Assembly (NCBI GenBank): GCA_951406725.2
Contig: OX597814.1
Span: 152,458,001-152,522,000 of the forward strand
DNA: 64,000 nt
Origin: Octopus vulgaris
Taxonomy: Eukaryota
Reading direction: 5' to 3'
The notes beneath the pieces were generated by a model. The model saw nothing but the letters and a program-made list of their open reading frames with translations, searched no databases and was not told the origin of the DNA. A program made the position numbers and the translations under genes. Shown here one piece after another: positions 1,331 through 61,676 of the stretch (its first letter is position 1; every line of letters begins with the position of its first letter).

Positions 1331-1358
1331 AGTTATGATGTTAATATCCTCAGTTGGA

Positions 1359-1754
1359 AGGCAGTGAACTGGCAGAAACGTTAGCACGCCGGGCGAAATA
1401 CCTAGCGGTATTTCGTCTGCTGTTATGTTCTGAGTTCAAATTCCGCCGAGGTCGACTTTGCCTTTCATCCTTTCGGGGTCGATAAATTAAGTACCAGCTA
1501 CGCACTGGGTCGATATAATCGACTTAATACCTATGTCTGTCCTTTTTTGTCCCCTCTATGTTTAGCCCCTTATGGGTAATAAAGAAATAGGTATTTCGTC
1601 TGCCGTTACGTTCTGAGTTCAAATTCCGCCGAGGTCGACTTTGCCTTTCATCCTTTCAGGGTCGATAAATTATGTACCAGCTGTGTACTGGAGTCGATCT
1701 AATCGACTGGCCCCCTCACCAAAAATTTCGGGCCTTGTGCCTAGAGTAGAACAG
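1359..1754 (+). mobile_element. SINE family A dimer (tRNA-like head, GCCTTTCATCCTTTCGGGGTCGATAAA core)
   Basis: Two bodies joined at AAAGAAATA|GGTATTTCG; TSD AATATYCTCAGTTGGA at 1343-1358 and 1755-1770. Confidence 0.88.
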
Positions 1755-1771
1755 AATATTCTCAGTTGGAC

Positions 1772-6292: not shown

Positions 6293-6406
6293 GCAATCAA
6301 CCAAAATATCAAAAACGCGAAGATATTAAACATTTGATAAATAAATCAAAAAGACATCTTTCTGTTATAACTCCATTCACATGTAAGATGTTTTATGGGA
6401 ATATAA

Positions 6407-6805
6407 CACCTTTTATGCTATAGGCAGAAGCCTTAAATTTTCGCGGGAGGAGACTAGTCGATTACACCGACCCTAGTGCTTGGCTGGTACTTATTTTATC
6501 GACCCCGAAAGAATGAAAGGCAAAATCGACCCAGGCGGAATTTGAACTCAGAATTTAAAGACGGACGAAATACCTATTTCTTTACTACCCACAAGGGGCT
6601 AAACACAGAGAGGACAAACAAGGACAGACAAACGGATTAAGTCGATTACATCGACCCCAGTGCGAACTGGTACTTAATTTATCGATCCCGAAAGGATGAA
6701 AGGCAAAGTCGACCTCGGCGGAATTTGAACTCAGAACGTAACGGCAGACGAAATACCGCTGAGCATTTCGCCCGGCAGGCTAACGATTCTGCCAGCTTGC
6801 CGCCT
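6407..6805 (-). mobile_element. SINE family A dimer
   Basis: Junction GACGAAATACC|TATTTCTTT near 6572; TSD TTTATGGGAATATAA at 6392-6406 and 6806-6820. Confidence 0.88.
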
Positions 6806-9043
6806 TTATGGGAATATAATATCGATTGCAGTACCTGACAGGTACTTGATCTTTTCGACAACTAAAGGATCGAAGATAAAGTTGAACTTGGCAGGATTTG
6901 ACTTTAAAATGTATAGGATTGTGTCTAAATCTTTCGAGTTCTTTTGGAGAACACTAACATTTCACTTAATCCAGTATTTCCCGTATTCACCGTTCGTAGT
7001 TAAACAATCTCGCTGACATTCTAATATTTTTGCTACCTAAAGTACGTTCCGAATCATTTGCTGATGCGAAAGAAAGAGAGACGACAATCGAGAGATAAAG
7101 ATAGAAAGAGATATATATGTGGAGATAGAGAGATAAATAGAAAGGGAGAAAATTCAAAGATAGGGACCTACAAAGCAGAAAAATCCATTATTTTTTCTGC
7201 TTCTCTTCCCTCTCTTCTTATTTAACTATCAACCAAGCGATAGTTGTCCAATAAGGCGCCATTATGGCTAACTAATAATAAACTTTACTCTGGTCAACTT
7301 TAGATAATCAACTGAGAAATACCTGTCGCCAAACCTAGTAATGATTTTTCCTTTGCCATCATCTTCATGTCATCAACAACATCAATACCACCACCATCAC
7401 CACTACCATTACCATCATCATCATTATTATCATCATCTTAGTTGTCGTCAGGGCATGTTGTCTCTAATGTTGTCATTATCATTAATATTCTCCCTCTCTC
7501 TTTCTCTCACCCCATTTTCGCATATTCTCTTATCTAAGATTTTGTGAATGTGTGTGTGTGTATGTATATATGTATGCGTGCATGTTTGTATGCAAACGTG
7601 TGTGCTATATGTGTATGTGTATGTGTCTACCAATATGTGAGTATGTCTGTATGTGAGTTTACCTATAAGAGAGCGTATATGAATGCGTGTAAATGATTGT
7701 GTATGCGACTACGTATTTGAAAATGTGCTTATATATATGTGTGTGTGTATGTGTGTATTTGTGTGGTGCGTGTGTGTGCACGTGTCTGCGTGTGAATTTC
7801 TGTATTTGTATGTGAGTCTATGTACGTGTATGTCTATGTGTGTGTATGTGTGCTGTATGTATGAGGGGATGTGCGCATAATCTCGCGTATATTTCTTTCT
7901 CTCTTCCCTTTATCATTTTCTTGCTTAATCTTCAAATGTTTTTGCAACAGTTCCTGGCAGTTAAATTAATGTTTAGGCACCATTTCTTCCAGTTGAATGA
8001 CCAGTTTATTTTCTGACATTTCAACAACAGACCAAAGAGCGCCATCTTCAGGAAAAAAAAAAACTTTCGCCATTTACCTTTTTTTTTGTGTGTGTATTTA
8101 TTTGATTCTTACTTCTGTGCTAGATTTCCTAACGCCATCTTGTGGCTATTACTTCAAGCTGAGAAACTACTTTCCTCTTTTTCTTTTTTTTTCTTTTTCA
8201 GTTTCTCTCTTTTATCACCGCCATTTTGTCACGCCCTATATCTCTTTTACTTTTTCTCCTCCACTTCTCTCTTTCTCACCCTCTACCTTTGTCCTTCTCT
8301 GACTCTTTCTCCCTTGCTCTCTCTCACGTTTTCTGCCTTTCTATCTCTCTCTTTTTCTCAATTTCCAAGCTATTTTCCAGAAAGACAGCACCAAATCCCC
8401 TATTGTCTTAATATTATAACAGAACTATTTTAATCACATTTCAAACAGACCCAGAAATTTTCTTAACGGCAAGTCAAAAACTACAAACAAACTATTTTTC
8501 AGAGATAGTTTAGGTATAACCACACTTGTTTAGATATATTTCGTACAATATATCCGTCATTCGTTCGCTCTCAGCAAATCTTTAACTCTGTATGTCTTTC
8601 AGTGTATTTAAATCTCTAGTTAACTTTCCTTTCGATTTTTTCCTTTTTTTATCCCATGGTCTATGTAGATTTGTATCTATGCAACCAACTTATCTCTTGT
8701 CTATTTATCTCGCAGAAACATATACCTCTAATCGCTTTGTCTATTTATAGCGCGCGCGTGCGAGTGTGTCCCATAAATAGATATCTCACTGATATAAGCT
8801 ACGTTACGTGCACGACTGACCGTGCCGAGACGTCAAACCTGCTTTTTATGTTTTAGTATATTGGCAGCTAAATACTTAAATACAAATTTATATTCCCACA
8901 TACTTTTGCTAACACCTCTACCGACTTCATTTTTGATAGAACGTCTGCATTTTATCATTTTATATCGTGGACTGTGGTTTGTGATGTTCATTATTTAAGT
9001 GATATATATATATATATATATACGTTTAAATATTTGTTGTGCA

Positions 9044-9949: not shown

Positions 9950-11480
9950 CTCCTAATGACCTCAAATTGAGACCTATAATAGCAGTTCCCGCATGCGAAA
10001 CCCACCGCCTCAGTAACTTTTTAGATTCCCTCTTAAAACTATACCTCAAGCATATCAAAAGCTACATAAGGGACGACCAGGATATGCTTAATCACCTTCC
10101 TGAAACAATAAACAAAAACACCTTACTAGTATCCTTCGATGTAGTTAACTTCTATTCCAATATCCCCCACAAATTAGGAATAGCGGCAATTCAATTCCAG
10201 CTAGAGAATTACGCCAACGAACTCCCACATCGCATCAAAAAAGAATTCGTGATAGAAGGGCTATATTTATCTTGGAGAATAACTACTTCGTCTTCAAAGA
10301 CAACTTCTTTCGACAAAAATCGGTGATTGCGATAGGTACAAGAATTGTCCCCTCCTTTGCTAACCTAGTCATGGGATATCTAGAAATTAGTCTTTATCGT
10401 AAGGTACATAGAAAATAACTGGAAGAGACACCTGGGTGACTGTTTCATTCTTTGGCATGAAAGTATAGGGAAACTTAAAGAATTTCAAGCACTTATAAAT
10501 GGACTTGATGTAAACATTCAATTCATGATGGAATATAGCCATCAACAATTTCCCTTCCTCAACATTCTCATTAGGAAATCTAACACCATAATAGAAACAG
10601 ATATATACTATAAGGCCACGGTCTCCAAGCAATAGCTACTGTTCAACTCATGCCGCCCCAGACACACCATAATGAATATCCCCTTCAACCTAGCAAAAAG
10701 GATCTGTACTATAGTTTCTAATGCATGCACCAGAGACACACGACTACACGAACTAAAGGATGCACTCATCACCAGGAACTACCCACCTTCACTAATTGAC
10801 ATATGCTTTCAACGTGCCCTACAACTCAACATCCGCGAACTCAGACATCCCAAATTAAAGAAGGATTTTTACAGCCAAAAGCCCTACCATACATCTCCAC
10901 ACACAATCCTCTTAAAAATGAAGCCTTCGACACCATCCTTCAAAACATTCTCCTGCTAAAAAAGGACCACAGAATGAAATTAATCCTCCAATCACACATC
11001 ATCACAAAAAGCAAGAGACAGAGCAAATCTATTAAAAGTCTCCTAACACAAGCCCGAATACGTTCAACAGCAACACTGAAGCCGTCAGTAAAAAAATTTG
11101 GAAGACCCAACTGTGGAATATGCGTCAATTTAATTGAGGGATCAAAGTTCTCCTTCAAACAAGGACAACGTTTCACAGTGAAAAGCAGCTTCACATGTGC
11201 TTCGGAGAACCTGATATACATAGACCAAACAAAAAACAGTCTACGTCAAAGGATGGCTTTGCACAAATTCCAGATCAAAATTCCGAAAAACAGAAAAATA
11301 ACATTCAGCTAACACATCGACATTTGCGCTAACAAAAATCCAAGCTTCAGAATTTTACCCCTCTATCAATTCAGGGACGATACAACCTGTAGCCAACGAA
11401 TTAATAAAGAGTTGTTCTTTATCACAAAATACAGACCCCTTTTGAACGCATCTATAGCAAATGACATATCCACCACGGCC
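9950..11480 (+). mobile_element. Degenerate Penelope-like element (RT + GIY-YIG endonuclease; CxxC linker suggests Neptune type)
   Basis: RPII...SFDVVNFYSNIPH; NNYFVF...IAIGTRIVPSFANLVMG; degenerate YxDD (WKRHLGDCF); FPFLNILI...TDIYYK; NIPFNLAKRI; RPNCGIC; FTCASENLIY...DQTKNSLRQRM. Multiple frameshifts. Confidence 0.9.
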
Positions 11481-16667: not shown

Positions 16668-16787
16668 ATGCTTACAGCACCCAGGTTTCCCTAGCGGTCA
16701 CCGATCTAAGTACTAACTAGGCTCAACGTTGCTTAGCTTCGGTGATCGGACGAGAATCGGTGCATTCAACATCATATGGCCGTAAGC
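16668..16787 (-). pseudogene. Dispersed full-length 5S rRNA copy, probably a pseudogene
   Basis: Minus strand GCTTACGGCCATA...TCTCGTCCGATCACCGAAGCTAAGCAACG...TTAGTACTTAGATCGGTGACCGCTAGGGAAACCTGGGTGCTGTAAGC; 120 nt with paired 5'/3' ends. No oligo-T terminator and not in an array. Confidence 0.88.
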
Positions 16788-21095: not shown

Positions 21096-21712
21096 TCGAG
21101 AAATTATAATAGTAACACACAAAGATTCAACACTGTGGTGAGAGATGAAAAGAGACGGAGGAGACACAAGAAAAAAGAGACGGGGGAGAAAATGAACGTA
21201 TACACACAATCTTTCTCAAATATGTGAGAGTACGATATAAACTGGCAAATATTGAAGTATAAACTCAAAATGAAATGTGAGCCAATCCAGACATACGAAC
21301 TAATACTTATACATAAGCTAACTGCAGAATATAGCTAAAATATGACCCCAATTCTGAATTGTGAACCAATAATGAAATATGAGCCAATAATAAACTATGA
21401 ACCAGTTCTGAAATACGGCGAAATACTGAATTCTGTTATAATGTTAAAATACAATCCATAACGCTGAAATAGGTTGCAATGAAGAATGATGATTCAATCG
21501 TAAAGTATGAGCCAATGGTGAAATATGACCTAATGCTGAAATAATTTTAATTTCATTGAGCTTCGTTTGCCGTATTAACTGTATTGTACAATACAGTTTA
21601 TACTTCTAATATACATTGCTTCCTTTACCATTTGTGTGTGTGTGAAAAAGAAAGAAAGAGTCAGTGAGTCTGTGTGTGGAGTGGCAATGAGTTCAATATC
21701 ATCATTAGAGTT

Positions 21713-22328
21713 AGGGTGGCGAAATGGCAGAATTGTTAGCACGCCGGGCGAAATGATTAGCGGTATTTTGTCTGCCGCTACGTTCTGAGTTCAAATTCCG
21801 CCGTGGTTGACTTTACCATTCATCCTTTCGGGGTCGATTAAATAAGTACCAGTTACGCACTGGGGTCGATATAATCGACTTAATCCGTTTGTCTGTCCTT
21901 GTTTGTCCCCCTCTGTCTTTAGCCCCTTGTGGGTAGTAAAGAAATAGGTATTTCGTCTGCCGCTATGTTCTTAGTTCAAATTCCGACGAGGTCGACTTTG
22001 CCTTTCATCCTTTCGGGGTTGATTAAATAAGTACCATTTACGCACTGGGATCGATATAATCGACTTAATCCGTTTGTCTGTCCTTGTTTGTTCCCTTCTG
22101 TGTGTAGCCCCTTGTGGACAGTAAAGAAATAGGAATTGTTAGCACGCCGGGGAAAATGCTTAGTGGCATTTCGTCTGTCTTTACGTTCTAAATTCAAATG
22201 CCACCGAGGTTGAGTTTGCCTTTTATCCTTTCGGGGTCGATAAAATAAGTACCAGTTGAATACTGAGGTAGATGTAACCGACTTACCCCTCCATCAAAAT
22301 TGCTGGCCTTGTGTCAAAATATGAAACT
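21713..22328 (+). mobile_element. SINE family A trimer
   Basis: Three bodies, junctions at ~21946 (GAAATA|GGTATTTC) and ~22132; flanked by AATATYATCATTAGA. Confidence 0.88.
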
Positions 22329-22472
22329 AATATTATCATTAGAATCAGAAATATTTCGCCATAATCCGTGCAAACCAAGCTCTAAAATGCCAGTTCTCAC
22401 TTGATTTATCTTAGTTGTTTCCATTTTCGTTCAATATTTATTATTGTTGTTGCTGTTATTGTTGTTGTTGTT

Positions 22473-23569: not shown

Positions 23570-23932
23570 GGCGCAGGAGTGGCTGTGTGGTAAGTAGCTT
23601 GCTAGCCAACCACATGGTTCCGGGTTCAGTCCCACTGCGTGGCATCTTGGGCACGTGTCTTCTGCTATAGCCCCGGACTGACCAATGCCTTGTGAGTGGA
23701 TTTGGTAGACGGAAACTGAAAGAAGCCTGTCGTATATATGTATATATATAAGTGTGTGTGTATATGTTTGTGTGTCTGTGTTTGTCCCCCTAGCATTGCT
23801 TGACAACCGATGCTGGTGTGTTTACGTCCCCGTTACTTAGCGGTTCGGCAAAAGAGGCCGATAGAATAAGTACTGGGCTTACAAAGAATAAGTCCCGGGG
23901 TCGATTTGCTCGTCTAAAGGCGGTGCTCCAGC
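23570..23932 (+). mobile_element. SINE family B
   Basis: Closely similar to the 3886 copy. Confidence 0.88.
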
Positions 23933-41916: not shown

Positions 41917-42244
41917 CACTAGAACACGGTATTTGTTCCGACTCACTGCATTTTAAGTTCAAGTCCCAGTGAGGTTAACTTTGTCTTTCAATCATTCATT
42001 CGAGATTGATAAATAAAGTACCGATAGAGGATGTTGGATTAATAGAATTGGTAGAATGTCTGACGGTAGCTTTTGGATATCTGTGATGGCCCTTTTGCGT
42101 TCTGATAGCAACACTTGCGGCAATACTTGTGCCGAGTTATAACGGCCTAAGTCTTTTCGTTGGACAACATCGACGGTGTAGACAGTGGAGACCGGCATAC
42201 GTAGCCAACGGTTTGTTGTTCATAGAAAGTAATAAATAAATTTA

Positions 42245-42465
42245 AGGCTGCGAGCTGGCAGAAACGTTAGCACGCCGGGCGAAATGCTTAGCAGTTTTTC
42301 GTTTGTCTTTACGTTCTGAGTTCAAATTCCGCCGAGGTCAACTTTGCCTTTCATCCTTTTGGGGTCGATAAATTAAGTACCAGTTACGCACTGGTCGATG
42401 TAATCGACTTTATCCCCTTGTTTGTCCCCTCTATGTTTAGCCCCTTGTGGGCAATAAAGAAATAA
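42245..42465 (+). mobile_element. SINE family A monomer (AAGAAATAA tail)
   Basis: Full head, core and tail; AGAAAGTAATAAA on both sides. Confidence 0.85.
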
Positions 42466-42544
42466 GAAAGTAATAAACCTGCCCAAGTTTGCTCATATAG
42501 GTACAGATGAAAGGTTAATCCTGACAGACTGGGGTCCTATCTTT

Positions 42545-48236: not shown

Positions 48237-48666
48237 TCAGGTAACCTCTGAAGAGGAAGCTGAGTAGAACTCATTCCAGAAATTTAAGAGTCGGTTTTCA
48301 TTGTTGTTACAAAATTTCCTGAAGTCCAAAAGAACTTTGTCTTGAAAGAGTTCATCTCCAGTGAATGTTGTGCGCCATCGCTTGGATAACATATGGTTCC
48401 ATGACCAAAGTATAGGAAAGTTTGCTGACAATGAATTCTGTTCATGGCGTAGGTCACCACAGTGTTCAATGTAATTTACAGCAGTTTCTGACACTTGAGA
48501 GGAGGAACGAGTTGACCTTTGTTTGGTACCAAGTTTACAGAGATTGTCGATGGTAGAGAGTATGATGAACATCCCTCCAGAACAGTGAATATACTGTTCG
48601 ACTTCAATACAGTACCATGGAGATTGGCTGTCATCATTCTGCATCTTCACGCTAATGAAACCAAAT
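48237..48666 (-). CDS. DEPDC5: DEPDC5 terminal coding exon to the TGA stop
   Basis: Acceptor ttaactttcag|A. Encodes FGFISVK...EQYIHCSGGMFI...WSWNHMLSKRWRTTFTGDELFQDKVLLDFRKFCNNNENRLLNFW, resembling the recalled human C-terminus [44 protein letters not shown]. Confidence 0.95.
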
Positions 48667-48934
48667 CTGAAAGTTAAATAAATAAATGAATGAAACATGA
48701 TAAAATAAACACAACATGTGACTGCAGTTGCAAAACTTAGTCAGACAGAAAGAACATATGCTAACGTGTGCAATTTATGTAATTAATCCAGAAAGAGATG
48801 CAGGAGAAAAAATACAAAACAAACAGAAGTTTTATGAGAATTCAGTAAAGCAAAATAAATAACCACTAAAACGAATGGCAATTAGGAAATGGTTCAAAAT
48901 GTGAATATAGATGTGATAAAAGAATTCACCTTAT

Positions 48935-49768: not shown

Positions 49769-49980
49769 AGGTAGTGAGCTGGTAGAATCATTATGATACC
49801 AGGAAAAATGCTGAGTGGCATTTTGTCCATTTTTACATTCTAGGTTCAAATGCTGCCAGGGTCAACTTTGCTTTTCATCTTTTCGAGGTCTATAAAAAAA
49901 GTTCCATTTGAGAACTGGGGTCAATTTAATCGACTTAACTCCTCCTCTGAAATTGCTGGCCTTGTACCAAAAATTTGAGA
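49769..49980 (+). mobile_element. SINE family A (DEPDC5 intron)
   Basis: Diverged head, core and tail. Confidence 0.75.
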
Positions 49981-50305
49981 TTATTATTATAATTATTATG
50001 ATTATTATTACTATAATTAAAGTGGTGAGTGAACTGGCAATCCATTTTAACCCTTCAGCATTTAAACTGGCCATATCCAGCTCAAATATTCCACTTGTTT
50101 TATGTTGAAAGTGATCATATCTTGCCTCTCACACCAACCCTACAATGTCACTCAAAATATAAACAATCACATCATAGAGGTCTCGATTGTACGAGAAAAT
50201 GCATGATTAATTCAAAACAATGTAAATAAATAGGCATTACATTTGACAGAATAATCTGAATGCTAAAGGGTCAGTGTTAGTAGGGTATGATTTGACCCTG
50301 TAGAG

Positions 50306-51087: not shown

Positions 51088-52294
51088 CTGAAAAGAAACA
51101 AATATTTCAATGATAAATTAAACAAACCAAAATGAAAAAAATACAATAGCAGAAGTGTTAGTAACCAGATCAAGGATTTATGAAGAAATATTTTCAAAAG
51201 TGGTAGGCATTCAGAAGGGTATTCAGTTGTAGTAGGAATCAGAACAGACATTAGGGCTCAACACAGCCCTCTGACCTGTCAGATGTTGATAAAACACCCA
51301 ACCGATACCAGTATGGAATATGGATGCTAAACGATGATGATGATTATGGTGATGATGGTGATGATGGTGATGATGATGTTGTTGTTGTTTGAGCCTAAAT
51401 CAACCCTGCAGCTCACGAGTTCTCTGTAAAACTGTCCAACCCATGCTAGTGTGGAAAGCAGACATTAAAAATGATGGTGGTGGTGGTGATGGTGGTGGTG
51501 GTGGTGGTGATGGTGATGATGATGATGATGGTGATGTTGTTTGAGTCTAAATCAACCCTGCAGCTCACCAGTTCTCTGTAAAACTGTCCAACCCAAGCTA
51601 GCATGAAAAGCAGACATTAAATGATGATGATGATGATGTGATAACGATGACGATAACGATGGTGGTGATGACGACGACTCCACAAAGGTGTGATTGTTTC
51701 AGCTTTGAACATAAAAACTTTAATCTTATTCAGATCAAGTCACTTACGAAACAAGTACAACTCTGAACATAAACTAAGTTCCGAAAGAACATTAATCCCA
51801 ATACAATAATTGTTTGGCAAAAGGAATAAGAATCCAAAATCAATATTATCAGCAAAATACATTCAATGTTAACAGAAAGACCAAACAAAACAAGTTGGAG
51901 AAAACCACAATGGAAATTACCTTCTAGGTTCTGCTTTTGTTTTTCTTTTGTTTTTTTTTTTTCAAAAAATATTTAAACATGGAGAAGTTTAAAATTTTAT
52001 TTTATTGTTATTTCTTTAGCTAAACCCAGACAGAAAGTCAAATATGTGCTGACATTTTCAAAAGTGGGCGGATAAACATCGTTTACAATGTTTATCAGCT
52101 CACAATGTCACTCAAATACAATTGTAGTTTTATTTTATCAGAAATTTAGAAAGAAAAATGTTTCAGAAGTTCCACCACAAACTAATTCTTTTTACATTTT
52201 CGTTATCACCATGACCATCACCACCACCATCTTCTAGTTTTCCCTATAGAGAAATCAATGCATGACTACACACACACACACACACACACACTCT

Positions 52295-52807: not shown

Positions 52808-53248
52808 CTGGTTTCAAATTTTAGCACAAGGCCAACAATTTCGTGGGGGGAGGGCGCTTAAATCAATTGCATTAACCCCAGTAGTCAGCTGGTACTTATT
52901 TTATAGATCCCAAAAGGATGAAGGTCAAGCTGACCTCAGTGGAATTTGAACTTGGAACATAAAGTAGGACTAAATGCCGCAAAGCATTTTGTCCTGCATA
53001 CTAACAACTGTACCAACTTGCCACCTTAACAATAATAATCCTTTCTACTACAGGCACAAGGCCTGAAATTTGTGGGGGTGGGAGGGGACTAGTCGATTAC
53101 ATCGACCCCAATGTTTCACTGGTACTTAATTTCTCGATCTCAAAAGAATGAAAGGCAAAGTCAACCCAGTCGGAATTTGAACTCAGAACAAAGACAGATG
53201 AGATGCCACTAAGCATTTTGCTCGGTATGCTAACGATTCTGCCAGCTT
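52808..53248 (-). mobile_element. Two adjacent SINE family A copies
   Basis: Reverse-complement cores at ~52900 and ~53150. Confidence 0.78.
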
Positions 53249-54532
53249 AGTCGTTTACAGACTATAACATAAAAGTAGCAAAGTTAAGAAAGTATCTCAA
53301 TAATGGTACAATGGTACCATTAACAGATTTCAATCTGACACAGCTATTCAGACCAGACCTCTGATTACCTCTCCAGCCACAATTTTTTTTTCCCATCACA
53401 TACTCAGACAATTGTAAAAACCTCACCACTTTGCAAACGTCTACAAAGGTCACAGGTTCTGTCTCTTCTTCTCCGACTAACTTATAAGAAATGAGTACAG
53501 AATACATGTTATTCATTTGTTTATTGTAGGTGAGGCTTGGTGCTGGCATTGCTATGTGGTAAGTTTTCTTCCCAGCCATATGGTTCAAATCCACCACACA
53601 GCACCTTGGACGAGTGTCTGCTGCCATAGCCTCAAGCTAACCAAAGCCTTGTGATTGAATAAGGTTGATGGAAACTGAAAGAAACCTAACCATATATCTC
53701 CCAATGGTGGTGATGACGATGATGATGGAATTATTGCTGCTGCTGTTTTTATCAGAAGAGGAAAAGTCACACCTTTACATGTGGATATTAAATATTTTTC
53801 AATTAGGTTTCACTGAGACAAGTAAAATGATTCTATTTGAAATGAATAAAAATCTTGGTTAGCCCTCATCAAACACCTACACCCAGGACAATCTTGTCTT
53901 CCTCTCTGGAATAGCATACCTCTGATTAATTAACCAATGTCTCCTTAAGACTGAGGTTTAAAGGAGATTTAGCTCTTATTTATAGCAAGTCAAGCAACAA
54001 TGTAAAATACCCCTTGTTAGTAGTAATCTATTGTTAATTTCATCATCCTTCTTTAACTGAAGCATCATTACCATCATCATTTAATGTTCATTGTCCATGC
54101 TGGCAAGGGTTGGATGGTATGACCAGAGCTGGCAAGCTGGGGAGCTGCACCAGACTCTAGTCTGATTTGGCATGGTATCTACAGCTGAATGCCCTTCCTA
54201 ATGCCAACCACTTTACAAAGTCTGCTGGATGCTTTTACATGGCACCTCATGGGTGCTCTTATGTGGTACTGCACATACACTTTTACATGGCACTGCACAG
54301 GCACTTTTAGGTGGCACTGCACAGGCAATTTTTACATGACACCACTATGAGTGCTTTACACCACCAGAGGAACCAATCTTAACACTTCTGCTGTGGAGTA
54401 AATGTTTTCTAATTCTTATAAATTCTCATAAATTCTGACTCCAGCAAATTTTTATATAAAACTGGATGTAAATCTGTTTTAAATAAATGGGAATAATTTT
54501 TGTACCATTGCTTTATTTATTTATTTATTTTA

Positions 54533-55869: not shown

Positions 55870-56275
55870 AGGTGCCAGTATGGTTGTGTGGTTAAGAAGC
55901 TCGATTTGCAACCATGTCGTTTCAGGTTCAGTCCTACTGCATGGCACCTTGGGTAAGTGTGATCTACTACAGCCCTAGGTTGACCAATGCTTTGTGAGTC
56001 AATTTGGTAGACAGAAACTGTGAAGAAGCTTGTCATGTATATGTATGGATGTATGTGTGTGTGTGTGCTTTTGTGTTTGTCCCACACTACAGTTTCATAA
56101 CAATTATTGGTTTGTTTACATCCCCATAACTTAGTGGTTCGGCAAAAGAGATCAATAGAATAAGTACCAGACTGTAAAAAAAGAATAAGTCAATTCATTC
56201 AACTAAAATCCTTTAAGGTGGTGTCCCAGCATGGCTATAGTCCTTAGACAGACATAAGTAAACGATAAAAGAAAA
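55870..56275 (+). mobile_element. SINE family B
   Basis: Head GGTTGTGTGGTTAAG and core CACCTTGGGTAAGTG. Confidence 0.8.
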
Positions 56276-57119
56276 GTGTTTTTTCTTCTTGTGTTCAAGG
56301 GAGAATGACAAAAAAATTAACTTCCGGTAACATGAGACCATATCAATCAGTCAATCCTGAAATGCATGATATCACAAAAATCATACTAACTTTGTTAACA
56401 TTCATTTTGAAGGAAGTGAGGAACTCTCTAATGTAAGGGAGGGAATTCTAATTCCTCCTTCTGTCATTCATATGTTCTGTAACAGAATAACTAGAGGACT
56501 AGGTTTTTAAATTAGAATTTTTTCATAGGATATTAAAAGATGTTGAACAACTGAGCATACCATTTTTTGCATATCTAAAATTAAAGTACCTAATGTGTCT
56601 TTTTTTTTTTTAAAGATGAAGTGATTTGAAGGTGTGATACAATGGCGATTTAGCAGTTATTTTTAACAGAATGAAGAACCATGTATCACAAACATTCCCA
56701 AGCATTTCACAATCAAACACCCCTTTTAGATTAATTTTCCCGTGGATCTCAAGCTTTTTCAAATCTCCATCTACACAACAAACAGATTTTGTTCTCTAAA
56801 AACAAGCTATTTGCCCACTTTTATCTTTTAGCTGAAAGGTATATGTAATTGAATAATTATAACTGAATAATTATACATTCTGCACTTCAACTTCTTAAAA
56901 TTTTGAAAACTGTTCACAGACCAACAGTACTATCTTTAATCACCTTTGGTAACCAACAAGCATGAACCAATGAGGAAGCTTCATTGAACCCACAGCAGAT
57001 TTAAAGTCAGAACCCAGAAATAGACATAACTATATATACTGTGAGCCATTCTGCTGCCAACTCTGCTGTTTCTGTCACACACCTACTCTTCTTTAGTGCC
57101 TCTGATAATAAAATAGAGA

Positions 57120-57719
57120 AGGTGGCGAGCTGGCAGAAACGTTAGCACGCCGGGCAAAATGCATAGCCGTATTTCGTCTGCTGTTACATTCTGGGTTCAA
57201 ATTCCACCGAGGTCAACTTTGCCTTTCATCCTTTCGGGATTGATAAATTAAGTACCAGTCACACACTGGGGTCGATGTAATCGACTTAATCTGTTTGTCT
57301 GTCCTTGTCTGTCCCCTCTATGTTTAGCCCCTTGTGGGTAATAAAGAAACAGGTATTTCATCTGCCGTTACGTTCTGAGTTCAAATTCCACCGAGGTTGA
57401 CTTTGCCTTTCATCCTTTTGGGGTTGATAAATTAAGTACCAGTCACGCACTGGGGTTGATGTAATCGACTTAATCTGTTTGTCTGTCCTTGTCTGTCCCC
57501 TCTATGTTTAGCCCCTTGTGGGTAATAAAGAAACAGGTATTTCATCTGCCGTTACGTTCTGAGTTCAAATTCCACCGAGGTCAACTTTGCCTTTCATCCT
57601 TTCGGGGTTGATAAATTAAGTACCAGTCACGCACTGGGGTTGATGTAATCGACTTAATCCGTTTGTCTGTCCTTGTCTGTCCCCTCTATGTTTAGCCCCT
57701 TGTGAGTAATAAAGAAACA
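57120..57719 (+). mobile_element. SINE family A trimer: head plus three 184-bp units
   Basis: GTATTTC at 57169, 57353 and 57537; perfect 16-bp TSD GATAATAAAATAGAGA at 57104-57119 and 57720-57735. Confidence 0.92.
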
Positions 57720-58369
57720 GATAATAAAATAGAGAGTTGACAGAAATGATATGATTCCACAAGGAATGCTTTCACTCCCTCCAAAAGAATGCAAAAATAA
57801 GTATCAGTAATATATCCATAGGGGTCCATGAATACCATGTTGGGGATAGCTGGTTCACAGGCGTCATCATTGACTCAAACTAGTTGGTTACAGACAATGA
57901 TTAAATCAAACAACAGCTCTCCTTCTTATCACAAGTTATGATTTGGTGCCAATAACTGAAATGAAACGTAAATTATCAAAGTTGATGAATTAATAAAAAT
58001 CATTAAAGCATCTGACTGAAATGTCGTGCAGTGCTTTGTTTCACTCTTTTTTTTTTTTTGATTCCTAGTTAAATATCTCAGCAAAGCCAGATGGGAGTTG
58101 CTTTCATCTGGGCAATGTGGTGTTGGAGTGATCAGTAAATGATTGGGATACAATTCAAAGTCTGTCTTCCTTCAGAAATCACTATTGAAGAAATTGACCA
58201 GTTACAATGTAACTATCAATTGACCATACTGTTGATGGCAAAACACACACACGCACTCACAAATACTACATATACACATACATATTCACTATGCAATGGC
58301 CATATTCTTAATATAAAAAATCTTGTGAGAATACACACACAAAAAAAATGTACAAATACTCTCATACAC

Positions 58370-58444
<75 letters not shown>

Positions 58445-58533
58445 AAGGTTTTCTGTGCAGTTTGTCTACACCCACACGTCTGTGTGTGTAAATATATATA
58501 TATATATATATATACATACATACATACATACAT

Positions 58534-58566
<33 letters not shown>

Positions 58567-59279
58567 GACATGCTCTGTCAGATTATTTTTTGAGCATCAT
58601 ATGTTGATGTTACCCACTAAACAGCAACAGATGGCAAGCTTTAGTCATGCTAATCTGTTTTTTACCTCAAGGAATCAAATAAATAGACTAGTTAGATAAC
58701 CTCTTGTATAAGGGAAAAGTTGAAATGGTTGCGACATGGAGAGATTATTAGTTGCTGTTATTGCTGTTTTGTTAATTATTTTCTTTAGCATATATGCCGA
58801 GTGGAGTAAAAAGTTTATCAGGAAAAACTGGTTGCTTTCACTCTCAATAAAAACCAAGCGAAAAGATATAAACTGTTCAGATTCAAGTTACTCTATTGGC
58901 AAATAAATAAATATATCCACATGCACACACACACAGAGAAACATACACTTATATGTGCAAACATGCATATATACAGATACATCATACACATGCATACATA
59001 TATGCATGTACACACTCTGCACTCTTGTTGGAAGCAAGTCCTGTGAAACACATACAACTAAATGCATACACACACACATGTTGAAGCATTTAAATATTAA
59101 CTGTACACACATACAATCACATATGCATCATCACACTGATATGCGTGTGTGTGTGTGTGTGTGAATGTACATGTGTAGTTATATTCTCATATATACATAT
59201 ACATATGGTGTCACTACATACATATAGCCACATAGTTATATGCAAATGCATCAGTCTCATACACATACATCCATATTTA

Positions 59280-60385: not shown

Positions 60386-61676
60386 CGAGGGGCGTTTAAT
60401 AAGTAATGCCCCTGACCCACTTCCCATAGCAGTAGAGCAACGAAATTTGGCACAGTTATTAGTCTTTTTCTACATAAAAACCACCCAGAGTTACGCAGTT
60501 CTCCCACCGTTTGACGCAGCTCTGGAGACCGTTTTTGTAGAAGATCCCAGCTTGGTCCTCCAACCACGACGTGACTTCAGAAATCAAGGCTGCATCATCT
60601 GGGAAACGCTTTCCTTTCAAAAACAACTTCATGGCTGGGAAGAGGTGAAAATCAGAGGGTGCAAGGTCAGGAGAGTAGGGGCATGGGGGAGGAGTTCATA
60701 GCCGCATACCTGTGCTCCTGATCTGGTGACACGCGAGTTGTGGACCGGAGCGTTGTCCTGCAGCAGGAGGATGCCTTTGTTGATCTTGCCCCGCCTCTTG
60801 ATTTTGATAGCTTCTCTTAATTTCCTCAAAAGTGAAGTATAATAGGCTCCTGTAACTGTGGTACCCTTTGCCAGGAAATCTGTCATCACTACTCCGTCCT
60901 GGTCCCAGAAGACTGTGAGCATGACCTTACCAGCGGAGGGCTGCACCCTTGCCTTCTTTGGAGGAGGTGAGTCACGGTGCTTCCACTGCATTGACTGGGC
61001 TTTGGTCTCTGGATCATAGTGATGGATCCAGGTTTCATCCTGTGTAATCAGACTTTTGAAAAATTTTGACTCATCTTCTTGGCACATCTCCAAATTCACC
61101 CTCGAGCACTCGACGCGTTCTTGCTTCTGGAAAGGCATGAGCAACCTGGGAATCCATATGGCAGACACCTTTTGCATATGCAAATGGTCATGAATGATAG
61201 TTTCCACAGACCCGGTACTAATCTTGACCTCATGGGCTATTTGGCGAATAATTATGCGTCGATCTTCCAAAATGGCAGCCTCAACTTGACGGACAGATGC
61301 CTCATCAATGGCAGAAGGGGGTGACCAGATCTGGGAGCTGTTTCCACAGAGTTCCGACCATGTTTGAATTCACGATGCCAGCGTTTTACAAGGTCATATG
61401 ATAGGGCATCATCACCATAAGTTACTTTCATTTTATCAAAAGTCTTCCGTGGTGTGCGTCCTTTCAAATACAAAAACCGGATCACTGTTCGACACTCAAC
61501 AGGCTCCATTTCACACTTGACTCAGTTCAAACACGTGTAAATCAGAAACCACAATTATTTCAGAGCTGTAATTTGCCACTTAATCTATAGAGATATAAAT
61601 AATTACACATGCAAAATTTCAGCTAGATCAAACAACTGCAAGTAGGTCAGAGGCATTACTTATTGAACGTCCCTCG
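60386..61676 (-). mobile_element. Full-length mariner (DD34D) transposon in a DEPDC5 intron; transposase frameshifted
   Basis: ~37-bp TIRs CGAGGGGCGTTTAATAAGTAATGCCCCTGACCCACTT and its near reverse complement (4 mismatches), with TA on both sides. Transposase 61509-60459 has HTH, WIPRLL, DETW, QDNAPVH and YSPDLAPSDF motifs; frameshifts near 61320 and 60680. Confidence 0.96.

Follow-up and report, generated by a model that had tools for sequence, protein, structure and literature searches.

The window analysed here, a 64-kb stretch of animal DNA in which microsatellites are abundant, contains on its minus strand an open reading frame (48240–48740) that encodes the DEPDC5 C-terminal domain (PF19418), an exon of a DEPDC5/Iml1 gene. 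This exon is 85% identical to that of Argonauta hians, and since this species is the only homolog at E ≤ 1e-20 among 37 candidates, we assign the window to an octopod. The SINE multimers that are the subject of this report may lie within introns of the same gene.

One SINE family accounts for 27 BLAST matches in the 64 kb, which makes it a short interspersed repeat, and 223,640 to 392,784 contigs per DNA run align to its free monomer. Seven fragmentary matches were excluded; the remaining 20 units from 14 loci were aligned and numbered from the first G of the SINE head. According to this alignment, a unit consists of a 47-base head, a shared central part that extends to about position 165, and an exchangeable tail. 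Tail A comprises 66 bases and terminates in AAAGAAATA; tail B occurs in three subtypes (B1, B2 and B3). Motifs at positions ~10–21 and ~72–82 resemble the Pol III A box and B box, respectively, as we presume their consensus to read. ARAGORN reported no tRNA gene, and Rfam gave no tRNA match for the window and two multimer loci. A run of four T (the T4 terminator) is absent from the consensus unit, and the T runs that do occur are locus-specific. TSDs of 13–17 bp were present at all seven SINE loci examined. Within the 64-kb window tail A matches the eight SINE units alone, and no partner LINE was found there. The units and loci on which the following analysis is based are:

1343..1770, plus strand: 1.36-kb dimer with its TSDs (1343–1358/1755–1770, 15/16 identical); tail-A unit 1359–1589, junction at position 48, last unit 1590–1754 with a young tail B1
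6392..6819, minus strand: 6.4-kb dimer with its TSDs (6392–6406/6805–6819, 15/15, or 16/17 when extended); diverged head, near-pristine tail-A body, junction at position 48, old last unit 6574–6407 with tail B2
21695..22343, plus strand: 21.7-kb trimer with its TSDs (21695–21709/22329–22343, 14/15); tail-A units 21715–21946 and 21947–22131 (185 bp, junction at position 48)
22132–22328, plus strand: last unit of the 21.7-kb trimer, old, tail B3, re-entry at position 16
42224..42477, plus strand: free tail-A monomer (42246–42464) with its own 13-bp TSD, the reference for the read-contig overlay
46468–46689: tail-B1 monomer, truncated at position 22, with a 17-bp TSD; a 5′ truncation away from position 48
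57104–57119 and 57720–57735, plus strand: left and right TSD of the 57-kb trimer, identical at 16/16 bases
57120..57351, plus strand: unit 1 of the 57-kb trimer, a full-length SINE with A- and B-box-like motifs, central domain and tail A; C at position 48
57352..57535, plus strand: unit 2, positions 48–231, no A box, tail A, 184 bp
57536..57719, plus strand: unit 3, positions 48–231, tail A, 184 bp

Several other repeats share the window. Another tRNA-type SINE family, distinguished by its tail, occurs at 23570–23760 and in eight more places; its nine longer matches are dispersed, and none of them forms an adjacent multimer. Full-length tail-B copies at 52815–53253 (minus) and 49771–50040 end in an ATT-rich tail that is followed directly by another head, which is ordinary head-to-tail nesting. 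A full-length 5S rRNA match (16669–16787, minus, 92.5 bits) adjoins the apparent tRNA-type head of another SINE and is possibly a 5S pseudogene or a composite element. Two old SINE copies in opposite orientation (1135–1334, minus; 1775–1990, plus) in the region 1120–2005 have apparently swapped their flanks: the 5′ flank of one copy is the inverted 3′ flank of the other over 15 of 16 bases, and the converse holds for 10 bases. This arrangement fits an inversion by recombination between the two copies at one palindromic AATATT site, and the 1.36-kb dimer is a later insertion at the same site. The window also contains a mariner-type transposase ORF of 246 aa (60629–61369, minus; PF01359, E = 3.8e-25), a 152-bp tandem duplication of a different repeat with GAT/GGT microsatellites at its borders (51347–51671), and a 170-aa ORF with a cysteine pair (10800–11312; no Pfam match) that we take to resemble a fragment of a Penelope GIY-YIG endonuclease.

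Junctions and re-entry sites

At the four multimer loci, tail A is joined to the following unit by the junction AAAGAAA(T/C)A|GGTATTTC five times: at 1589|1590, 6575|6574 (minus), 21946|21947, 57351|57352 and 57535|57536. All five re-enter the family at unit position 48 and are base-identical (5/5), and the initial annotation was right to describe these multimers as joined at one internal point. That four loci share the same base out of ~165 candidates far exceeds what chance would give (of the order of 1e-7 if the loci are independent). Each of the four multimers is indeed bounded by one TSD, and the length of 184 bp ascribed to the 57-kb units is reproduced in units 2 and 3 as well as by TRF (period 184, 3.0 copies, 95%). 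A last unit with a different tail had been noted for the 1.36- and 6.4-kb dimers, where it is present, and had been missed in the 21.7-kb trimer. Across the four loci the unit numbers are 2, 2, 3 and 3, with three SINE units as the largest tandem array in the window, and the last units carry tails B1, B2, B3 and A. The unit number is hence not fixed, and because the non-A last units belong to three different tail-B subtypes, one fixed dimeric master is excluded. We can also rule out an assembly artefact: the 57-kb units differ from each other at 11, 10 and 5 of 184 bases, and three DNA runs contain 85–90% of the words of 56000–59000.

Eight tail-A ends are present in the window. Five re-enter at position 48, one at position 16 (the sixth junction, 22131|22132), and two, at 57719 and in the free monomer, abut their own TSD. 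These last two identify tail A as a true 3′ end and not an internal linker. The initial annotation had overlooked the position-16 junction and the free monomer. Its notion of one recurrent junction is too narrow, given the other hotspots that appear in read contigs. Logan contigs from the runs X1 (organism A), X8 (organism C), X17 (organism D) and X7 (possibly RNA of organism A) were aligned to the free monomer. Contigs in which a tail-A end rejoins the head number, in this order of runs:

position 15: at least 32, at least 29, at least 33 and at least 4
position 16: at least 10, at least 1, at least 3 and 0, among the joints listed
position 17: at least 5, at least 3, at least 9 and at least 1
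position 5: at least 14, at least 10, at least 2 and 0, among the joints listed
position −2: at least 14, at least 6, at least 9 and 0, among the joints listed

Re-entry junctions are neither single nor scattered, but fall on several hotspots common to three organisms. Among the 27 joints listed (the best 15 of 1040, and 12 of 626 with letters between the two ends), for which the ranks of the hotspots hold, positions 15–17 are the commonest re-entry site, and one joint is an explicit position-48 junction (X17, 42464 to 42297, with GGTA between), versus five of six junctions in the window. This scarcity is not contradictory, since the reference monomer is poorly suited to position 48, with five mismatches against young copies in 42293–42308. 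The position-15 site starts with AGAA, resembling the tail end. Joints from 42468/42469 to 42308 were set aside as candidate position-48 junctions; their left ends fit a position-15 junction as well, and they are therefore counted for neither site. Because contigs show neither circles nor transcription, the four position-15 contigs of X7, which is RNA by guess, were not used. Contigs that leave the core with other tail types, at 42359 and 42385, also return to the head (42244, 42306 and 42307), and re-entry may not be confined to tail A. Scans of viral, metagenome and genome contigs with the multimer pattern gave no match.

The initial annotation had also suspected a hairpin at the junction. 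A hairpin does lie at this site, but it is the native one of the SINE head:

6746..6773, minus strand: native head hairpin, 12-bp stem 32–43/48–59 with loop 44–47 (ViennaRNA pair probabilities 0.98–0.99)

In the ViennaRNA fold of the 6.4-kb first unit, the 3′ arm starts with junction base 48, directly after the four-base loop. The 6-bp inverted repeat GAAATA-GG-TATTTC that had been proposed instead exists at the junctions outside 57 kb; at the 57-kb locus the tail reads GAAACA and the repeat is mismatched. It arises because the tail end resembles the native 5′ arm of the head hairpin. Inverted repeats of at least 5 bp are expected at 5 of 166 possible re-entry positions (46–50), and we regard the one at the junction as a modest coincidence. 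The junction hairpin alone amounts to −1.4 kcal/mol and reaches a probability of ~0.3 in a circular fold. Pairing of the RNA 3′ end with the re-entry site, which the initial annotation had offered as the cause, is rejected as a driver: its probability in the monomer fold is 0.0, the duplex yields only −3.6 kcal/mol, and stronger sites exist at 92–97. Rfam detected no ribozyme at gathering score across the window and none at E up to 5 in two multimer loci.

Age and kinship of the units

One of the options considered initially, that young copies insert into older family members, gains support from the old–young–old order at 6.4 kb, from a 19-bp duplication at 21.7 kb, and from heads that are more diverged than the bodies behind them. 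At 6.4 kb the head shows 5/45 differences, the middle core 2/118 and the last core 15–16/119 from either consensus (middle versus last core, p = 0.0003 on counts of 1/118 versus 15/119). The last unit carries the young T at position 50 and old-type bases from position 59 onward; C50 is found in all four old monomers that have C59 and an aligned position 50. For the three A-to-B multimers, a set of three loci chosen after the alignment had been seen (the polymorphic position 19 was skipped and the 1.3-kb minus copy excluded), the heads show 16/135 differences from a leave-one-out consensus and the adjoining cores 15/355 (Fisher p = 0.003). The corresponding head and core counts in controls are 8/161 versus 40/463 for four young controls and 63/269 versus 158/704 for six old monomers, and two of 286 triples of 13 loci attain the observed head/core ratio. 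The last unit at 1.36 kb is not clearly older than the first (8/119 versus 4/118).

The last unit of the 21.7-kb trimer begins with a repetition of bases from the first head:

21730..21748, plus strand: left copy of the 19-bp internal duplication (positions 16–34), identical to the right copy including a shared variant
22133..22151, plus strand: right copy, preceded by a G that is missing from the host head

Exact identity over positions 16–34 occurs in none of 52 other young/old pairs. The duplication is likely the TSD of a nested insertion; read in this way, it marks the spot where an element entered an old copy and had its 5′ end joined to the homologous point of the host. The position-16 junction, by this duplication, and the 6.4-kb dimer, by its age polarity, both qualify as nested self-insertions. 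The six bases that follow the tail match GGTATT at 5/6 positions at the position-16 junction, at 4/6 in the 57-kb flank (the start of the right TSD) and at 2/6 in the free monomer. The extra G and the 5/6 match are as expected if the inserted RNA continued past its last tail into a position-48 junction. None of the five position-48 junctions shows an internal TSD. The old head, young middle and old end at 6.4 kb, together with the 19-bp duplication, lead us to favour a nested origin, in which the element enters a family member and its 5′ end is joined seamlessly by homology.

The three units at 57 kb form a clade (98/96) and have five clear derived variants in common (positions 86, 121, 140, 189 and 230); three further differences fall at sites that are polymorphic among other loci. 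Since their common ancestor the units have undergone 8, 5 and 4 changes (p = 0.47), a star-like divergence, and the pairwise-shared CpG decays number 4 versus 2.7 expected (P = 0.26), so that identity at birth is not rejected. The tail-A units at 21.7 kb also group together (92/90), yet they differ at 17/185 positions. A core-only tree resolves little (0 of 17 branches starred). Grouping within a locus indicates one source that was copied more than once; it is the strongest argument for the rolling idea of the initial annotation and speaks against homing alone. Of the multimeric master proposed earlier, this grouping calls for a weaker form and not for a fixed single master; a multimeric source is compatible with varying numbers of units. 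A circle is not required at 57 or 21.7 kb, because the direct repeats of a multimer let RT jumps or unequal exchange alter the number of units. The variant TTCCACC had been described as private to the 57-kb units. This description does not hold, since TTCCACC results from CpG decay, is shared by other copies and is present in ~13% of the read-contig depth (42331 G>A). Similarly, 42370 A>T, a marker of the 21.7-kb locus, makes up ~7–12% of the depth, and some of the "private" variants are subfamily-level.

Possible routes to a multimer

The route that we favour, and to which we give even chances, is nested TPRT into family members with homologous resolution, combined with inheritance of the junction and re-aiming by read-through RNA. 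Young tail-A SINE RNA would be reverse-transcribed into an existing family copy at few preferred sites, and the product is of the kind seen in the window: a host-like head, a tail-A body and the remainder of the family member inside one TSD. We infer, with support from the 6.4- and 21.7-kb loci, that a partner LINE enzyme cuts one strand of the resident copy and starts synthesis on tail A. The 3′ end of the cDNA would then anneal to the homologous upstream strand, with trimming of mismatched host bases, which would explain why a second head is absent. Because the consensus unit lacks T4, Pol III rules (accessible text of PMC8466645) predict that a transcript from the first unit would pass through the junction and contain tail A followed by GGTATTTC. 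Priming at this internal tail, with extension that matches the target, would favour position 48 of any family member and reproduce the junction to the exact base. In addition, complete multimer RNA may integrate at unrelated sites, and homologous jumps by the RT or unequal exchange may alter how many units there are and homogenise them, as would suit the 57-kb trimer.

A precedent for such joins is provided by R2. In PRINT, the template 3′ tail anneals downstream of the nick and the cDNA 3′ end upstream, giving seamless junctions, and where homology is provided, R2 mostly yields 3′ and 5′ joins made seamless by template–target annealing (PMC11371274, accessible parts). It is partly on the strength of these joins that we rate nested insertion with homologous resolution as we do, and by analogy the octopus element likely works like homology-guided R2 insertion. 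Unlike R2, which relies on protein specificity and an rDNA target, the octopus element would target the SINE family itself with the enzyme of a putative LINE partner.

Nested insertion is supported by the head/core polarity, the three tail subtypes of the non-A last units, the old end at 6.4 kb, the 19-bp duplication, the GGTATT matches and the hotspots in three organisms. Other observations weaken it. The star-like clade at 57 kb points to repeated copying of one source and away from entry into an arbitrary old copy, the two 21.7-kb tail-A units cluster as well, and internal TSDs are absent at the position-48 junctions. The outer TSD at 6.4 kb matches at 15/15 although the presumed host is ~13% diverged, and the 1.36-kb last unit is not clearly older than its neighbour. 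The head test covers three loci and is post hoc, the window did not yield a partner LINE, and the junction sits at the edge of an RNA hairpin loop, which would suit a cut or jump at the RNA level.

The explanations considered here are not mutually exclusive. Template jumping without a covalent circle has a minor but real chance of being correct. The RNA would be cut or blocked at loop 44–47, and the LINE RT, on reaching position 48, would jump to the tail-A 3′ end of the same molecule, giving A–A multimers, or of another molecule, giving A–B multimers, all in one insertion. Such jumps would account for position 48 as the first base after the loop, for the single TSD around every multimer, and for the grouping of units by locus with star-like divergence at 57 kb; since this trimer looks copied from one source, it leaves room for template jumping or a circle. 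R2 proteins indeed jump between template ends (PMC11371274, accessible parts), and DRT2 yields precise concatemers by programmed intramolecular jumps on a non-circular RNA (PMC11100668, accessible parts). However, template jumping predicts a young head, whereas the heads of the A-to-B multimers are more diverged than their bodies. It requires RNA from old copies that are 10–13% diverged, and it makes the 19-bp duplication a coincidence (0/52 controls). None of the 10 aligned monomers starts at position 48, and the tail does not pair with the re-entry site in the monomer (probability 0.0).

We consider it unlikely that a multimeric master and DNA recombination produced the multimers, with ectopic gene conversion spreading the junction, unequal exchange altering the unit number, and no targeting by RT. 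The base identity of all five position-48 junctions would suit inheritance of this kind, and conversion from a multimer donor would also yield the old–young–old order with the host TSD kept. Unequal recombination has been proposed for SINE-derived satellites in reptiles (PMC10702118, accessible parts). Nevertheless, both switch points at 6.4 kb fall in ~44–58, beside the junction, although 118 homologous bases were available, and recombination would produce neither the position-15–17 hotspot (at least 32, at least 29 and at least 33 contigs in three organisms) nor the 19-bp duplication. Decidedly improbable, in our judgement, is a scheme in which the 184-nt segment parasitises its own SINE family and guides itself there: an RNA lacking a ribozyme would be opened at the hairpin loop and copied repeatedly, either in circular form or through programmed jumps. 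The junction of this RNA would aim the product at position 48 of resident copies, and the segment would then take over their Pol III promoter.

We regard as very improbable a covalently closed 184-nt RNA (positions 48–231) that is reverse-transcribed in the rolling-circle manner proposed for non-LTR retrozymes, an option raised by the initial annotation: the unit length lies inside the 170–400 nt range of metazoan retrozyme circles (PMC7229834, accessible parts), the 57-kb units are compatible with identity at birth and the junction hairpin forms to some extent in the circular fold, but the Rfam searches returned no ribozyme, tail pairing in the monomer has no measurable probability, every multimer starts with a full head that a circle would not contain, at three of the four loci the last unit is of another kind, partly old and of one of three subtypes, the loci have 2–3 units versus up to 62 in retrozyme arrays, and the hairpin is mismatched at 57 kb.

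Relation to known elements

The octopus multimers resemble metazoan non-LTR retrozymes, which are mobilised by LINE or PLE RT, in their short tandem units of similar size. Retrozymes need hammerhead ribozymes and form circular RNA (PMC7229834, accessible parts), whereas no ribozyme was found in the octopus window or in two multimer loci; the multimers are therefore not members of this group.

The SINE family itself is presumably OR1/OR2-like. Published lists of CORE-SINEs include OR1 and OR2 for octopus (PMC4824008, PMC4758252), and tRNA-Core and tRNA-Deu dominate octopus SINEs (PMC8967140). The family studied here has in common with these elements, as far as the accessible parts of these sources describe them, the octopod host, an apparently tRNA-type head, the shared central domain and the exchangeable tails; no mention of internal-junction multimers was found in the accessible parts of the literature searched.

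Self-insertion at one nucleotide of a family is known from Alu, for which thousands of sense-strand insertions at consensus position 133 have been reported (Levy et al. 2010, PMC2836564, accessible parts). The Alu hotspot is attributed to the A-rich linker and to L1 endonuclease sites, whereas the octopus sites lie in the tRNA-like head and show a seamless 5′ join without a second head. B2, Dip and Ves SINEs form head-to-tail dimers to octamers, which represent 40–49% of B2 and Dip copies, and full-length SINE multimers are common in rodents and bats; their origin has been left between tail insertion and multimeric templates (PMC8466645, accessible parts). In contrast to these units, described as full-length, downstream units of the octopus multimers start at a fixed internal base and lack the A box. 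In squamate sSat elements, part of a SINE is repeated in tandem, and some of them carry SINE termini on either side (PMC10702118, accessible parts). Their long arrays are explained by DNA recombination, whereas the octopus multimers consist of 2–3 units, are bounded by TSDs and have unit ends at the retrotransposition tail. Multimers of the octopus kind are not described in the open literature searched, a scope outside which Repbase, Dfam and subscription papers fall, and the accessible text of two recent octopus repeat papers does not mention them (PMC13282606, PMC12988792). SINE multimers and self-insertion hotspots are already known, and the octopus case is a variant with a fixed internal re-entry base.

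In the usual view, SINEs do not influence the choice of their insertion site, apart from microhomology over a few tail bases. Should nothing more than ordinary nested insertion and recombination be involved, the multimers would be a tidy octopus example of known behaviour. If instead read-through RNA aims copies at a fixed site of their own family with homologous ends, this SINE would be a natural counterpart of the engineered R2 templates, with homology as the guide to insertion. Dispersed SINEs would thereby have a concrete path to SINE-derived tandem repeats, and young tails a means of taking over old heads (module exchange); the resulting copies would be mosaics, and their age would be misread. 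Because SINEs constitute ~11.6% of the O. vulgaris genome (PMC13282606, accessible parts), the effect there could be large.
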